From IMG/VR virus record IMGVR_UViG_2695420624_000005: a DNA stretch of 20,305 nucleotides; one strand, given 5' to 3'. Positions 4,338 through 18,887 of this stretch are shown here, one piece after another; position 1 is the first letter of the stretch; every line of letters begins with the position of its first letter. Origin of the DNA: a virus (taxonomy: Duplodnaviria; Heunggongvirae; Uroviricota; Caudoviricetes). A program made the position numbers and the translations under genes. The notes under the pieces were generated by a model. It searched no databases, was not told the DNA's origin, and saw only the letters and a list, made by a program, of their open reading frames with translations.

Positions 4338-5420
4338 ATGAAAAAATTAACAGTGGCAATTTCTGCTGTAGCTGCATCAGTACTGATGGCGATGTCTGCT
4401 CAGGCAGCTGAAATTTATAATAAAGACAGTAACAAGCTGGATCTGTACGGGAAAGTTAATGCTAAGCACTACTTCTCCTCTAATGATGCAGATGATGGTG
4501 ATACTACTTATGCCCGTCTTGGCTTCAAAGGTGAAACCCAAATCAACGATCAACTGACTGGTTTCGGTCAGTGGGAATATGAATTCAAAGGCAACCGCGC
4601 TGAATCTCAAGGTTCCTCCAAAGATAAAACCCGTCTTGCCTTCGCTGGCCTGAAATTCGGTGACTACGGCTCCATCGATTACGGCCGTAACTACGGTGTA
4701 GCATACGACATCGGTGCGTGGACTGACGTCCTGCCAGAATTCGGTGGTGACACTTGGACTCAAACAGATGTGTTCATGACTGGTCGCACCACTGGTGTTG
4801 CAACTTATCGTAACAACGACTTCTTTGGTCTGGTTGATGGTCTGAACTTTGCTGCTCAGTATCAGGGTAAAAATGACCGCACTGACGTAACTGAAGCTAA
4901 TGGTGATGGTTTCGGTTTCTCCACTACTTATGAGTATGAAGGATTCGGTGTAGGTGCAACCTATGCTAAATCTGATCGCACTAATAATCAGGTTATCTAC
5001 GGTAACAACGGTCTGAATGCTTCTGGTCAAAATGCTGAAGTATGGGCAGCTGGTCTGAAATATGATGCGAACAACATCTATCTGGCCACCACCTATTCTG
5101 AAACCCAGAACATGACTGTTTTTGGTAATAACCATATTGCCAACAAAGCACAAAACTTCGAAGCTGTTGCACAATATCAGTTCGACTTCGGCCTGCGTCC
5201 ATCCGTTGCTTACCTGCATTCTAAAGGAAAAGACTTGGGTGTTTGGGGTGATCAGGACCTGGTTGAATATGTTGATGTAGGTGCAACCTATTACTTCAAC
5301 AAAAATATGTCCACTTTTGTTGACTACAAAATCAACCTGATTGATAAGAGCGATTTCACGAAAGCATCTGGCGTTGCTACCGATGATATCGTTGCTGTAG
5401 GTATGGTTTACCAGTTCTAA
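4338..5420 (+). CDS. nmpC: Outer-membrane general porin, NmpC/OmpD (Lc) family, apparently intact
   Basis: 360 aa with signal peptide [29 protein letters not shown], porin motifs throughout and the C-terminal ...VAVGMVYQF. Opposite strand to the surrounding late genes; the preceding roughly 590 bp is very AT-rich. Confidence 0.85.
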
Positions 5421-9519: not shown

Positions 9520-11046
9520 TTAGAAATAAATCTCACCATCAACCATATATTTGAGAGCACTTATCGCCTGCTGGGCGGATATTACTTTCATTAAAGGATA
9601 GTGTTTAAAAACAATGCCATTCATAAAATAGATATCACAGGTTTTATTATCCGTATTAATTATGATTTTTTCGAATGTTTTATAGGCAAGTGTACGGCAT
9701 AACTCTCGTCCATTTTTACTGGTTAAGTCAATAGCATAAAAATCACTGAATGAATTTACACCTTTACTCTTCAAAGTTTTCAATGATACCGAAGCCCTTC
9801 GTAATTCCTTATCTAATAGTCTTATTTTCTCTGCTATAGCGGTAACTTCAGGCGCGACAGACAATGCAACGATTAAATTATTAATTTTCATCTGAAGCTC
9901 AATAATTTTTAACTCTAAAGTTTAATTAGCATCTTTCTTGTTTTCAACTGGTTGAATTTTGCTACAATTAAAAAGCAATTCATTAATGATATTATAATCA
10001 ACCAAATCTCTTTTTATTGATGGCCTGTCACATCGATGTAATCTTCTCATCGGACAAACATAATAGCCATGCAAACTTCCAGATACCGCATGAACAATCA
10101 TGGTATTACCACAAGCCTCACACTTCATAACTGTTCGAAGTAGATTTATTAGCATAGGATTCTTGCTACTATTGCTAATACCAAAAGGTGCCAACCGAAT
10201 TTCCTGTACAGCGTAAAACAAATCATCTGATATAACTCTGGGATAATAGCCAGCGATTTCACTTATCCCTTTCCCTCTTGCACGATATGAAGGTACGCAT
10301 ATACCTATCAGAGCTTTATTCGCTAATAATTTTTCAATTACAGAAGGTCCCCATGCACTTTCTTTTCCTGAGAAATTCTTTACAGCATGATCATTTAAAT
10401 ACTTGGCTATTGCATTCAATGAGCGCCTTTCCATCCTGAGTTTAAAAATTAGCTCAATAGTTTTCACCCTGTCGGGGTCTGGAACAAAAGCCGTTCTTTT
10501 GTCATCTAAGGAGAGCCATCTCGGACAAGACGCCGTCATAATCGTACCTGATTCCATTGCATCCTGCCGTTTTTTCTTCCATGATAATTTAACCCGACTT
10601 GACTTTATCTCGCTTTCTTCATTTGCCCTTTGTGCTATAAGTATGGCTTTTATTAATGAATATGGCTCATTCAAAGAGTCAATATTATAGACTGTATTGT
10701 CGCAAAGAGTTATAACATCAATACCGTGATTCAAAATCAATTTCAGACGTTCAATCGCTTCACCGACTTTTTCTCTTGAAAGTCTGTCCAGACTTTCAAC
10801 TAACAATGTAGTTCCTGGCAATATATAACCATGCTCTATAGCATCTAAAAATTCCGAAAAAGCTCCTGATTGTGCATGCTTTCCTTTGAATGCACTTAAT
10901 CCTAAATCTTCATATGTTATGGTATCAAGATAATAATCACTATTTACCTTTAACCATTCAGCAATAAGTCTTCTCTGTCGGTTTAATGAGTCACCAGACA
11001 TCTGACCTGGTGATGAAAATCGCATATATGCTATGGCTTTTTTCAT
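9520..11046 (-). pseudogene. ybcK: Large serine recombinase (YbcK-like) split by a single in-frame TAA into 374-codon and 123-codon ORFs
   Basis: ORFs 9922..11046 (resolvase-type N-terminus MKKAIAYMRFSSPGQ…, recombinase domain, Cys-rich zinc-ribbon region) and 9520..9891 are in the same frame, separated by the TAA at 9922..9924 plus 10 sense codons. Read through, the total is 508 codons. Confidence 0.6.
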
Positions 11047-14621: not shown

Positions 14622-15314
14622 ATGAAAAAAGAAACTCTTGCTGATCGCTTAAACCTAGCGATGGAACAATCTGGAATGTCTCAAGGCGCTCTTGCAAAGG
14701 CGTCTGGCGTAGCTCAACCCACAATCTGGAGACTGACAAGCGGCAACGCTCGCGGCTCAACAAAAATTGTTGAAATAGCTAATGCATTGGGTGTTCGAAC
14801 AGAATGGCTCTCATCAGGCATAGGCCCGATGAGAAATGACGGTCAACAATCAGGGAAGCCTGCTGTCAGCCATTCAAAATACTTCAAAATTGACGTTCTT
14901 GATATAGAAGTCAGTGCCGGGCCGGGAGTCATCAACCGTGAGTTTGTAGAAGTTCTACGCTCGGTTGAGTACTCGTTTGACGATGCTCGTCACATGTTCG
15001 ATGGTAGGAAGGCAGAAAATATCCGCATCATTAACGTACGCGGTGACAGCATGTCAGGAACGATCGAACCAGGTGATCTTCTGTTCGTTGATATCACGGT
15101 TAAATCTTTCGACGGTGATGGTATCTATGCGTTTCTGTATGACGACACAGCCCATGTAAAGCGCCTGCAAATGATGAAGGATAAGCTGCTAGTTATCTCT
15201 GATAACAAGAGCTACTCACCGTGGGACCCGATCGAGAAAGACGAGATGAACCGGGTATTCATCTTCGGGAAAGTCATCGGAAGCATGCCGCAGACGTATA
15301 GGAAGCATGGGTAG
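14622..15314 (+). CDS. cI: CI-type prophage repressor (N-terminal HTH plus LexA-like S24 autopeptidase domain)
   Basis: From the ATG at 14622: MKKETLADRLNLAMEQSGMSQGALAKASGVAQPTIWRLTSG… and C-terminal …RGDSMSGTIEPGDLLFVD…HVKRLQ (Ser/Lys dyad). The ORF track's TTG start at 14586 seems less likely. Confidence 0.85.
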   Translation: MKKETLADRLNLAMEQSGMSQGALAKASGVAQPTIWRLTSGNARGSTKIVEIANALGVRTEWLSSGIGPMRNDGQQSGKPAVSHSKYFKIDVLDIEVSAGPGVINREFVEVLRSVEYSFDDARHMFDGRKAENIRIINVRGDSMSGTIEPGDLLFVDITVKSFDGDGIYAFLYDDTAHVKRLQMMKDKLLVISDNKSYSPWDPIEKDEMNRVFIFGKVIGSMPQTYRKHG

Positions 15315-15425
15315 TGAAGGACGTGTCAACTCTATTTTGTAAGCTATCCAGACTCACAGTTGCAGATCGACGAGTAACTTACATACAGCACAAAAAAACA
15401 ATATGCACGTGCTTTTAGACTAGAC

Positions 15426-15440
15426 TTACCATAATGGTAA
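15426..15440. promoter_or_regulatory. 15-bp perfect palindrome TTACCAT-A-ATGGTAA overlapping the first ATG of the toxin gene (candidate antitoxin operator)
   Basis: Read directly from sequence; MqsA antitoxins are known to bind ACCT…AGGT-type palindromes in their own promoters, and this site has an ACCA…TGGT core. Confidence 0.4.
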
Positions 15441-15844
15441 CAAGTATGATTCTTAGCAGATATGTGGGAACTCCTCCCCGTGATGGCGAGGACAGAAAGA
15501 TTCAAGGTGGTCCGCTTTATTTAGATATCATTGATTTGATTGATGAATGTGACACACTGCCTTGGACTAGACGGTGTATCAGGGATGTTCAATCGCTTTC
15601 TTTAGATGCAGATGACATCAAATCTATGGTGATAAAAGCAGTCACTAAAGGGAGATTTCTAGGTTCAGAATGGTGTCAAGGCAGTAAACCAGGTGTATGG
15701 GCAGCTTGTGATGCTTATAGCTTTGAGCACTCATTTTGGTGCCAAGCTATGCATAAAGAACTTAATAACGAGTTCTACATTAAATTTTTTGTAAACATTA
15801 CTGGCAATGTAGTGCTTACAGTATCTCTTCATCTCTCTAATTGA
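15434..15844 (+). CDS. MqsR-family toxin (putative mRNA interferase) with an N-terminal extension; start codon uncertain (15434 or 15446)
   Basis: C-terminal region …LSLDADDIKSMVIKAVTKGRF…FYIKFFVNITGNVVLTVSLHLSN resembles MqsR (…LGLDFDGMCNVIIGLSESDF…VYLKITVIHDVLIVSFKEK, from memory). Toxin gene precedes the antitoxin gene as in mqsRA. Confidence 0.6.
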   Translation: MVTSMILSRYVGTPPRDGEDRKIQGGPLYLDIIDLIDECDTLPWTRRCIRDVQSLSLDADDIKSMVIKAVTKGRFLGSEWCQGSKPGVWAACDAYSFEHSFWCQAMHKELNNEFYIKFFVNITGNVVLTVSLHLSN

Positions 15845-15868: not shown

Positions 15869-16456
15869 ATGAGAAACAACAACATATGTCCAGTTTGTGG
15901 TGTAGGTCATCTCACCGTGGAGATGGAGTATGATGATGTTACTTATAAAGGGGAAACAAAAAATCTCCCAATAAGGTTTTCTGTGTGTGATCAATGTGGT
16001 TCGGAAACTGCCACACCAGTCGATTTACGAGAAAACAAACGAATTTTCAATGAATACAAAAAGTCTATCGATGGACTTTTAACAGGAAAAGAATTAAAAA
16101 AAATTAGAACTGAAGTATGGATGATAACCCAGCAAAAGGCATCCTCTATATTTGGTGGGGGGCCTAAGGCATTTTCCAAGTATGAATCTGATGATGTCAT
16201 TCAATCAGAAGCAATGGATAAACTGATGCGTTTAGCAGCAGAAGTTCCTGATGCATTCAAAAGGTTACGGGAATTATCTGGCGAAATCAAAGTTGAAAGA
16301 ACAGTCTCATCATCTAAATCTTTACCTATATGGAAACCTGAAGCAAAAGCACAATTTGAAAACGATGATCAGGGATTTGACAGCAAATCACCAGCCCAAA
16401 CAAAAATGAATCAAACATCAATAAAGATAAAAACTGTTGCTAAGCGGGTAGCATGA
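15869..16456 (+). CDS. MqsA-family antitoxin (zinc-ribbon plus XRE-HTH) with a C-terminal extension of roughly 65 aa
   Basis: Preferred start is the ATG at 15869 (GAGGA 8 nt upstream); the ORF track starts at the GTG at 15845. N-terminal CPVC…CDQC zinc ribbon; HTH …LTGKELKKIRTEVWMITQQKASSIFGGGPKAFSKYE… matches MqsA …LTQKEASEIFGGGVNAFSRYE…; low-complexity tail after about residue 135. Confidence 0.75.
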   Translation: MRNNNICPVCGVGHLTVEMEYDDVTYKGETKNLPIRFSVCDQCGSETATPVDLRENKRIFNEYKKSIDGLLTGKELKKIRTEVWMITQQKASSIFGGGPKAFSKYESDDVIQSEAMDKLMRLAAEVPDAFKRLRELSGEIKVERTVSSSKSLPIWKPEAKAQFENDDQGFDSKSPAQTKMNQTSIKIKTVAKRVA

Positions 16457-16956
16457 TGAATGAACTTCTTAGATCAGCAATAGACGCATTATCAATAATG
16501 CATATCAATATCAGAGAATCTAACTTTGCTTTTTCTGAAGGGTATAATAGCTTTAACTTCAACAGCATAAATAAGCAAACACAATCATTTCGTAAGATAA
16601 AAAAAATCGAAGCTATTGAATTAGTAAGTGACGATGACTCATTAAAAAATGAGCTATATTACTCTTTTCACTACTCAGTTGGGCTTAGATTTATTGCAAA
16701 ATCCGAAGAAACATCTAAAGACGAAAATGATGTTGATACAATTTTTTCTATAGAAGCAATTTTTGAGGCGATATATCGCTCAAAGAGAGAATTATCTAAA
16801 GAAGAGTTAGAAGAATTTGCTAAGCAAAATGTAGGTTTTAATGTATGGCCTTTTTGGCGAGAGTATGTTCAAAACAGCACATCCAGAATGGGAATTACTA
16901 CAATAGCTATACCATTCTTTAAATTCAATAAATCAGACATACCTTCATTAGATTAA
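16453..16956 (+). CDS. SecB-like chaperone (predicted third component of a toxin-antitoxin-chaperone module)
   Basis: 167 aa; start overlaps the antitoxin stop (ATGA). C-terminal half …DTIFSIEAIFEAI…FNVWPFWREYVQNSTSRMGITTIAIPFFKF resembles E. coli SecB …FLCEVQQGGIFSIAGIEG…[30 protein letters not shown] (from memory). Size matches SecB (about 155 aa). Confidence 0.55.
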   Translation: MMNELLRSAIDALSIMHINIRESNFAFSEGYNSFNFNSINKQTQSFRKIKKIEAIELVSDDDSLKNELYYSFHYSVGLRFIAKSEETSKDENDVDTIFSIEAIFEAIYRSKRELSKEELEEFAKQNVGFNVWPFWREYVQNSTSRMGITTIAIPFFKFNKSDIPSLD

Positions 16957-16970
16957 ATTCAAATATAACT

Positions 16971-16997
16971 CCCGGCTACCGTGCCGGGTTTTCTTTT
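16971..16997 (+). terminator. Intrinsic terminator ending the cI/TAC transcription unit
   Basis: CCCGGC-TACCGT-GCCGGG hairpin followed by TTTTCTTTT, 15 bp after the stop of the SecB-like gene. Confidence 0.7.
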
Positions 16998-17119
16998 GCC
17001 CTCCCCCCATCACACAAACCGTTCAAAAAACCACCACGACCTCACTTCAGTTATCGCTATGCGATGCAAGTCACAAAATTAATTCTTTTTGCTATCAAAC
17101 ATTTAATATCAAAACACAT

Positions 17120-17170
17120 CAACTAATAGCAATAAGCATTGATATCACCAATAGCAATAGCTATTATCAC
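17120..17170 (+). promoter_or_regulatory. PL-like promoter with OL operators
   Basis: -35 TTGATA (17139..17144), 17-bp spacer, -10 TATTAT (17162..17167). The perfect 16-bp palindrome AATAGC-AATA-GCTATT (17150..17165) overlaps the spacer and -10; a second related 16-mer AATAGCAATAAGCATT lies at 17124..17139. Same half-site family as in OR. Confidence 0.6.
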
Positions 17171-17273
17171 CATATCGCAACAACACAACGATACGGCAAC
17201 CACCTGATTCACCGTTGCGATGACCGCTTAGATCCGCAGCTTGAATTTCAGCAGGCTTCGGGGAGTGCGAGGG

Positions 17274-17651
17274 ATGAAACGGACGCGTGAACGTCGGTGT
17301 GACCAGCTGAAATCAACTCAACATTTCATACCTTAGTCGCTTCAACGAGGCGGCTTAGTTATGACAACCGGCGGCCATCCACCGCCTGAATACGCGCAGA
17401 AGTCTTTATATGTTCAGCAGCCCAGCTTACGGGCAGGAGTTTTTATGGTTCATCAACATTACGGAACGCAGACCGTTAATCGCGGTGCGGTCATGCCAGG
17501 AATGCTGGTCAAACGCAAAGATGGTACCTGGACTGCATCAGCTAATTTACACGGACGACTTTATCTGCATCGCGGCATTGAGCGCACTTATACCCGTGAC
17601 TTGCTCGTGGAAGTTTTTCTCGACGGACGCGGCAACGGTCTGAATCACTAA
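17274..17651 (+). pseudogene. Candidate N-like antiterminator frame interrupted by an in-frame TAG (20-codon Arg-rich peptide, then a 96-codon ORF at 17361..17651)
   Basis: 17274..17336 encodes MKRTRERRCDQLKSTQHFIP followed by TAG; the same frame continues into the 96 aa ORF whose C-terminus …RLYLHRGIERTYTRD… loosely resembles the lambda N C-terminus …RTWYSKPGERGITCSG…. Position is right after PL/OL. Weak evidence. Confidence 0.3.
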
Positions 17652-17726: not shown

Positions 17727-18887
17727 ATGAACGCTTATTACATTCAGGATCGTCTTGAGGCTCAGAGCTGGGCGCGTCACTACCAGCAGATCGCCCGTGA
17801 AGAGAAAGAGGCAGAACTGGCAGACGACATGGAAAAAGGCCTGCCCCAGCACCTGTTTGAATCGCTATGTATCGATCATTTGCAACGCCACGGGGCCAGC
17901 AAAAAAGCCATTAAAGAGTTTGGATTAGGCAGAGACAGGCGAATCGCAATCACTGAAGCTATACAGGCCAACATTGAGTTATTTTCAGGACACAAACACA
18001 AGCCTCTGACAGCGAGAATCAACAGTGATAATTCCGTTACGTTACATTCATGGCTTGATCGCTACGAAAAAATCCTGGCCAGCAGAGGAATCAAACAGAA
18101 GACACTCATAAATTACATGAGCAAAATTAAAGCAATAAGGAGGGGTCTGCCTGATGCTCCACTTGAAGACATCACCACAAAAGAAATTGCGGCAATGCTC
18201 AATGGATACATAAACGAGGGCAAGGCGGCGTCAGCCAAGTTAATCAGATCAACACTGAGCGATGCATTCCGAGAGGCAATAGCTGAAGGCCATATAACAA
18301 CAAACCCTGTCGCTGCCACTCGCGCAGCAAAATCAGAGGTAAGGAGATCAAGACTTACGGCTGACGAATACCTGAAAATTTATCAAGCAGCAGAATCATC
18401 ACCATGTTGGCTCAGACTTGCAATGGAACTGGCTGTTGTTACCGGGCAACGAGTTGGTGATTTATGCGAAATGAAGTGGTCTGATATCGTAGATGGATAT
18501 CTTTATGTCGAGCAAAGCAAAACAGGCGTAAAAATTGCCATCCCAACAGCATTGCATGTTGATGCTCTCGGAATATCAATGAAGGAAACACTTGATAAAT
18601 GCAAAGAGATTCTTGGCGGAGAAACCATAATTGCATCTACTCGTCGCGAACCGCTTTCATCCGGCACAGTATCAAGGTATTTTATGCGCGCACGAAAAGC
18701 ATCAGGTCTTTCCTTCGAAGGGGATCCGCCTACCTTTCACGAGTTGCGCAGTTTGTCTGCAAGACTCTATGAGAAGCAGATAAGCGATAAGTTTGCTCAA
18801 CATCTTCTCGGGCATAAGTCGGACACCATGGCATCACAGTATCGTGATGACAGAGGCAGGGAGTGGGACAAAATTGAAATCAAATAA
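17727..18887 (+). CDS. int: In-frame gam'-'int fusion: first 62 codons of GamS joined to lambda integrase from about residue 34 to the C-terminus
   Basis: [60 protein letters not shown] matches the short form of lambda Gam; from …[46 protein letters not shown]… to …[28 protein letters not shown] the protein matches lambda Int. The GamS RBS (AGGAG) is retained upstream. No xis, bet or exo is present. Confidence 0.8.

Follow-up and report, generated by a model that had tools for sequence, protein, structure and literature searches.

The described system closest to the locus studied here is the MqsRAC cassette of Escherichia coli C496_10 (PMC9519451), which has the same gene order, gene sizes and prophage origin. 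For this cassette it takes both MqsA and MqsC to neutralise MqsR, MqsRAC protects against T2, and surplus MqsC abolishes the defence (PMC9519451); the same construct was re-tested in a second paper (PMC10783111). The authors start MqsR at an ATG that corresponds to position 15446 of our sequence, whereas the evidence presented below favours 15434, and they left the chaperone-addiction domain (ChAD) of its MqsA unmapped. The MqsA studied here carries Pro157, against Ser157 in the common allele.

The second relative is MqsRA-SecB of Vibrio cholerae RC385, a genuine toxin-antitoxin-chaperone (TAC) system (Bordes 2016, PMC5105189). Grafting amino acids 136-176 of V. cholerae MqsA on the HigA1 antitoxin of Mycobacterium tuberculosis made the latter dependent on the Vibrio chaperone, and replacing the V. 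cholerae MqsA tail by the M. tuberculosis ChAD switched the Vibrio TA pair to the M. tuberculosis chaperone (PMC5105189). Toxin, antitoxin and chaperone belong to the same families as those of our locus: the Vibrio-type MqsA (P0101) is about 45% identical, both tails contain an early Trp, and the Vibrio chaperones are matched by the MqsC profile. Nonetheless, the V. cholerae tail measures 41 aa and ends with -CYG or -CYV, whereas ours measures 59 aa and ends with -VA, and past the Trp the two are essentially unalignable.

More distant systems share single aspects. In the founding TAC, HigB1-HigA1-SecB^TA (Rv1955-1957) of M. tuberculosis, a SecB-fold chaperone binds a disordered ChAD via aromatics, and the antitoxin ends with Val-Ala; the toxin-antitoxin family (HigBA) is however different, the chaperone is only about 14% identical to MqsC, and neither an anti-phage role nor a prophage location is described for it. 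HigBAC of E. coli NT1F31 and CmdTAC (Mets 2024, bioRxiv 10.1101/2024.02.24.581848; Vassallo 2022) are prophage-borne anti-phage TACs in which aromatic motifs set at intervals let the ChAD wrap a SecB-like tetramer, and a structural protein of the phage competes for this chaperone. Their toxins and antitoxins are unlike those of MqsRAC, and CmdA has a C-terminal Ala-Ala ClpXP degron. Finally, MqsR/MqsA of E. coli K-12 shares the zinc-ribbon and HTH antitoxin, the toxin-first order, the MqsR fold (as modelled for our toxin) and the ACC-N5-GGT geometry of our putative operator, but has neither tail nor chaperone. Its toxin is also shorter (91 residues in chain 3HI2_D against 136 aa) and is recognised by Pfam.

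Identity and prophage setting of the cassette

We analysed a viral DNA stretch of 20,305 nucleotides (IMG/VR record IMGVR_UViG_2695420624_000005), referred to below as the window. The 'MsqRAC gene fragment' of E. coli C496_10 in Table S8 of Vassallo 2022 (PMC9519451) was identical to window 15346-15724 over the 379 nt compared. In addition, the published cloning primers mqsR-F, mqsR-R, mqsRA-R, mqsC-F and mqsC-R match exactly at 15446, 15821-15844, 16439-16456, 16453 and 16934-16956, respectively. The identity with the published construct thus rests on these 379 nt and five primers, and codon 157 of mqsA lies outside the 379-nt stretch. By this sequence match the three-gene cassette is the already published MqsRAC anti-phage TAC of E. 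coli, which makes the finding correct but already known. Since the cassette is the same as that of C496_10, the published phenotypes apply to it.

Among 5426 complete E. coli genomes, 18 carry the cassette at an identity of at least 99.8%, with products named by PGAP as 'MqsA family antitoxin', 'protein-export chaperone SecB' and 'hypothetical protein'. Escherichia phage PhiR70_1 carries it too, and Klebsiella phage 2b LV-2017 has a copy of 75% identity, in a region without an annotated gene.

As read from its surroundings, the cassette is located in the immunity region of a lambdoid prophage, in the position of rexAB in lambda. The gene directly upstream is a cI-type repressor (Table 1). Between mqsC and kil lie about 400 nt of non-coding DNA (16957-17360) with TATCACC-type repeats and a strong promoter-like site (TTGATA-17-TATTAT, 17139-17167) that looks like OL/PL. 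Downstream of this site we found no full-length N-like gene, just a 20-codon Arg-rich ORF (MKRTRERRCDQL...) at about 17274-17336.

Compared to phage PhiR70_1, the window prophage is without approximately 3.2 kb (gam through bet, exo and xis) at about 17912, and ORF 17727-18887 fuses the N-terminus of Gam to the C-terminal part of the integrase. In E. coli E2 both are annotated by PGAP as pseudogenes, so that the prophage, inserted beside ybhC at the attachment site of lambda, is probably defective. A further difference from E. coli E2 concerns position 9924 (A in the window, C in E2), within a stop codon that splits a 508-aa ybcK-type recombinase gene into the minus-strand ORFs 9922-11046 and 9520-9891 (374 aa and 123 aa). 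This change is probably a nonsense mutation in the window copy.

Operon layout, toxin start and chaperone

Three ORFs on the same strand form a compact operon with the gene order of a TAC: a gap of 24 nt separates ORF1 from ORF2 (15869-16456), ORF2 and ORF3 overlap by 4 nt, and a terminator follows ORF3. ORF2 can start at two positions, giving 195 aa from ATG 15869 or 203 aa from GTG 15845. The former is the most likely start, given a Shine-Dalgarno sequence (GAGGA) located 7 nt before it and the same choice made by PGAP. At the other end the stop codon of mqsA overlaps the ATG of mqsC (ATGA; GCATGATGA, 16451-16459).

Table 1. Coordinates of the features discussed, in window numbering
Feature	Position	Strand	Remarks
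cI-type prophage repressor, directly upstream of the cassette	14622..15314	+	XRE/cI repressor in E. coli E2, cI in phage PhiR70_1
Perfect palindrome TTACCAT-A-ATGGTAA	15426..15440	.	right arm forms the toxin Met-Val codons; arms 1 nt apart
mqsR-like toxin gene	15434..15844	+	136 aa; 132 aa from ATG 15446 of the published constructs
mqsA, antitoxin core (residues 1-136)	15869..16276	+	zinc ribbon (C7, C10, C40, C43) and HTH
mqsA, C-terminal extension (residues 137-195, 59 aa), putative ChAD	16277..16453	+	outside all domain models; aligns with V. cholerae MqsA aa 136-176
Tail island L152-P-I-W155-K-P157-E	16322..16342	+	Trp155 invariant among close relatives
Basic and hydrophobic strand-like tail island I185-K-I-K-T-V-A-K192	16421..16444	+	alignment of close relatives
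C-terminal Val194-Ala195, ClpXP-degron-like	16448..16453	+	-VA in 11 of 12 close relatives, -AA in one
mqsC, SecB-like chaperone (167 aa)	16453..16956	+	predicted structure and primer matches
Intrinsic-terminator-like hairpin with T run, closing the operon	16971..16998	+	sequence scan

The ORF1 toxin has, in its structural model, the MqsR fold. It was left unrecognised by the Pfam search (PF15723, the MqsR family with its RelE-superfamily RNase fold), a profile of the toxin family found no MqsR among the PDB sequences, and PADLOC returned no match for either toxin or antitoxin.

Reading of the sequence followed by a pattern search revealed a perfect palindrome over the toxin start. Its core, TACCAT-N-ATGGTA, is found at the toxin start or within about 110 nt of it in 72 of 75 MqsR-like/MqsA loci, and in most of them TACC begins 7 nt before the called toxin ATG. 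These loci belong to very diverse bacteria, include two-gene loci and encode proteins that are only 40-50% identical; the Klebsiella phage copy, 75% identical, keeps the core intact as well. The motif described for the MqsA operator is ACCT-N3-AGGT (PMC4894380, PMC5422877), of which the window carries the variant ACCA-N3-TGGT (TTACCATAATGGTAA) with the same ACC-N5-GGT geometry. The palindrome is probably the MqsA operator of this MqsR/MqsA subfamily. Together with the conserved Met-Val start it also argues for 15434 rather than 15446 as the start of MqsR. A promoter proposed by the sigma-70 scan at 15421-15450 was considered dubious and discounted, as transcription would begin downstream of the toxin ATG.

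For ORF3 an AlphaFold2 model based on 11 homologues reached a mean pLDDT of 81.6. Its best Foldseek match is 5MTW, the structure of Rv1957 with a ChAD peptide (E 1.2e-7, TM 0.64/0.76), followed by the SecB entries 1OZB, 1FX3 and 1QYN of Haemophilus influenzae and E. coli (E 5e-7 to 2e-5). Judged from this model the product clearly has the SecB fold. Matches to SecB at the sequence level are sub-threshold (E 0.008 for Pfam, 0.013 for NCBIfam); the best match of an MqsC profile among the PDB sequences is again 5MTW (chain C, E 0.0047), and PADLOC gives a weak match to the CmdC model PD-T4-9_C (E 7e-4).

The MqsA tail and its linkage to the third gene

ORF2 encodes a canonical type II antitoxin with an extension that is absent from two-gene relatives. 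It matches Pfam MqsA_antitoxin PF15731 (E 2.3e-17, 63.8 bits against a cut-off of 30) and TIGR03830 (E 6.9e-33, 113 bits against a cut-off of 61.8), and combines the CxxC...CxxC zinc ribbon of MqsA, with all four cysteines (C7, C10, C40 and C43) invariant in the alignment, with an XRE-type HTH. Both family models span residues 15-142 in the 203-aa numbering, which correspond to 7-134 in the 195-aa numbering used here, and the last helix of the core (...AFKRLREL) finishes at residue 136. A preliminary description of the locus had placed the end of the MqsA homology around residue 135, in good agreement with models that finish at 134 of 195, and the tail string it quoted is exactly residues 137-195 (window 16277-16453). 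The extension it described is thus real, but its length is 59-61 residues instead of the proposed 65 or so, and the start at 16260 lies 6 codons upstream of the actual boundary at 16277. The description of the tail as low-complexity did not hold: Shannon entropy is 3.82 bits against 4.15 in the domain, and the lowest value for any 12-mer is 2.58 against 2.63. A more fitting description is polar and disorder-prone: 63% of the tail residues are disorder-promoting and its GRAVY is -0.85 (-0.52 in the domain), the disorder being judged from composition only.

How generally such tails occur was surveyed by scanning one genome per species for MqsA relatives, which yielded 80 loci, or 81 with the Klebsiella phage locus; their ORFs were scored with profiles from the three window proteins. 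Tails of 41-71 aa were found in 65 of the 81 loci, in diverse bacteria, and 64 of these were open to evaluation, L047 being cut off by a contig edge. Each of the 64 loci with tails of at least 41 aa has a tightly coupled downstream ORF of approximately 140-200 aa: 50 of these third genes are MqsC-like (class C1), nine belong to class C2a and five to class C2b. A coupled third gene is absent from all 15 loci whose tails measure 29 aa or less; one more locus, L056, encodes an unrelated 313-aa fusion. The tail-less forms do not make up a separate clade but are interspersed among the tailed ones, to which their core domains show up to 100% identity. In the window itself mqsC overlaps the mqsA stop codon and its product is modelled with the SecB fold, so that the extension does adjoin a SecB-like gene, as had been claimed beforehand.

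The clearest single case is L067. Compared to its tailed neighbour L059, it shows a clean deletion of about 380 bp (L067 approximately 4405-4415, against 4416-4786 in L059) that begins just after 'AGVER' and removes the tail-coding part together with the first approximately 270 nt (5' 60%) of the chaperone gene. Both the toxin gene and the antitoxin core are intact, the latter at 100% identity to the core of the tailed neighbour. L067 can be seen as a natural version of the truncation proposed in the preliminary description, and it fits the published rule that removal of the ChAD gives a chaperone-independent TA pair (PMC5105189).

The third genes of classes C2a and C2b are less easily recognised. 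In comparisons by Pfam, NCBIfam, PDB-sequence profiles and hhalign, those of C2a came out as only weakly SecB-like, with sub-threshold SecB matches, whereas those of C2b have no match in Pfam, NCBIfam or the PDB sequences and align to MqsC with a probability below 1% in hhalign. C2b-type third genes were located in L062 (4540-4962), L070 (2265-2699), L073 (4551-5003), L083 (4561-4980), L084 (2028-2453) and L085 (2721-3146). Their products measure about 140 aa and end with ...LPLGI, and the MqsA homologues upstream carry a different tail (KGM...), a type seen in about 20 of the 120 closest antitoxin homologues. The C2b genes could encode either an extremely divergent SecB or a different addiction chaperone. 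Co-variation of tail type and chaperone class was considered as evidence of a specific interaction but was down-weighted, because the genes of one operon are co-inherited.

The tail is the least conserved part of MqsA: in close relatives its identity amounts to 39-49%, against 72-86% for the core, and dN/dS compared to the Klebsiella phage orthologue is 0.41, against 0.07 for the core domain. Some stretches stand out nonetheless. Residues 140-146 form a conserved alternating (I/V)-x-V-E-(K/R)-(T/S)-V stretch. The second is the island around Trp155, where a Trp within the first 25 tail residues is found in 44 of the 50 class C1 tails, in one of the nine of C2a and in none of the five of C2b; F163 is kept in the nearest clade. 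Thirdly, residues 185-192 read IKIKTVAK, IIIKTVAK or IKIRTVAK in close relatives, with a motif of the type RPxLRVVSSS in the same place in distant ones. Trp155 and I185 are 30 residues apart. In the ChAD of HigA aromatic motifs lie about 30 residues apart and occupy equivalent pockets of the SecB-like tetramer, a spacing that ours resembles by analogy only.

Such modest conservation might be taken to mean that the extension is functionless and arose by drift of the stop codon at the gene overlap. The tail is, from the sequences compared, no chance read-through: dN/dS lies below 1, the islands at Trp155, IKIKTV and Val-Ala are invariant, 65 of 81 loci retain a tail of 41-71 aa, in strict linkage to the third gene, and the stop codon overlaps the next ATG. 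Of the explanations considered, stop-codon drift is the least credible.

Within the island around Trp155 the window differs from its relatives. Position 16337 in codon 157 (16337-16339) is a C, giving Pro157, whereas E. coli E2 and phage PhiR70_1 have a T and Ser157; this is the sole difference in the operon from these two records. The Pro157 allele was found on 9 contigs, the Ser157 allele on at least 1000. Residue 157 lies two positions after the invariant Trp155, and almost all close homologues have a Ser there (W-x-S-E).

At the very end of the tail, AA or VA terminates 16 of the 50 class C1 tails but none of 16 tail-less antitoxins (the 15 short-tail loci and the contig-end locus L047). 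Experiments have established both Val-Ala in M. tuberculosis HigA1 and Ala-Ala in CmdA as ClpXP degrons (bioRxiv 10.1101/2024.02.24.581848), and by analogy it is a reasonable inference that free MqsA is degraded by ClpXP. With AA or VA in just 16 of 50 related tails this step would not be general, and E. coli HigBAC functions without ClpXP (bioRxiv 10.1101/2024.02.24.581848).

The resemblance of the terminal Val-Ala to a ClpX tag could also be read differently, with the tail as a mere instability tag (a degron or aggregation patch) and MqsC acting on the folded MqsA core or on MqsR. We consider this very improbable: the aligned V. cholerae tail on its own confers dependence on the cognate chaperone on an unrelated antitoxin, the best structural match of MqsC, a SecB-like chaperone, was crystallised together with a ChAD peptide, and a single natural deletion in L067 affects both the tail and the chaperone gene.

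In many type II antitoxins it is a disordered C-terminal region that neutralises the toxin. It might be argued on this general ground that the tail is an additional arm of the antitoxin, serving toxin binding, dimerisation or DNA binding and unrelated to the chaperone. In MqsA, however, it is the N-terminal zinc domain that binds the toxin (3HI2, MqsA N-terminal domain with MqsR), tail-less relatives with cores up to 100% identical retain intact toxin genes, and such an arm would be the least conserved part of the protein. An arm of this kind is, if anything, slightly less probable than a mere instability tag.

Proposed working of the tail

Taken together, the homologous ChAD, the published cassette and the linkage of tail and chaperone gene support the chaperone-addiction reading that was put forward at the outset. 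We assign a probability of roughly 88% to the joint reading that MqsA 137-195 is the ChAD within the published MqsRAC and works as set out below, by analogy to the described systems. The limits follow from homology, as the junction of the Bordes swap (LDKLMLD) aligns with FKRLREL (residues 130-136), and Vibrio-type tails start at the same alignment column as the tail of the window MqsA. Chaperone dependence, defence against T2 and the effect of excess MqsC are others' data on the cassette itself, and a transferable tail was demonstrated for the homologue; the tail limits, key residues, ClpXP route, operator and competition trigger are what we infer from these.

In uninfected cells, MqsC made from the overlapping downstream cistron would capture the nascent MqsA tail, keeping the antitoxin soluble and shielded from ClpXP. 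The hold on the tail would probably involve Trp155 and the distal IKIKTV strand. An unheld tail would leave MqsA unstable or aggregation-prone, with the C-terminal Val-Ala probably exposing the free protein to ClpXP. As long as the tail is held, the zinc-ribbon/HTH core would block the MqsR RNase and probably repress the operon at the start-codon palindrome.

When a phage infects (T2 in the published work), one of its products may titrate MqsC off the tail. Indirect support for this step comes from the loss of defence upon overproduction of MqsC and from the competition between gpV and HigC in HigBAC. MqsA would then be lost and the MqsR RNase set free, so that the cell arrests and phage production stops.

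A more elaborate possibility, which we regard as unlikely though less so than the alternatives discussed above, is that the tail is a tunable decoy that competes with the phage protein for MqsC. S157P would in that case shift the affinity and thereby the threshold or phage range. Loss of MqsA would moreover derepress the operon, coupling toxin release to fresh synthesis, since the palindrome lies over the toxin start. Apart from this, the C2b third genes could encode a non-SecB addiction chaperone.

The discovery value of the plain ChAD reading is small: MqsRAC has been published and experimentally validated, and two of the three genes are already labelled by PGAP. What the analysis does illustrate is that a TAC architecture can be recovered from sequence alone. 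For those working on MqsRAC it adds the probable limits of the ChAD (137-195), with Trp155, residues 185-190 and Val194-Ala195 as candidate residues, as well as a rare S157P allele near the key Trp and a natural deletion of ChAD plus chaperone. The very widely conserved start-codon palindrome, finally, suggests the true start of MqsR and an operator for the subfamily.
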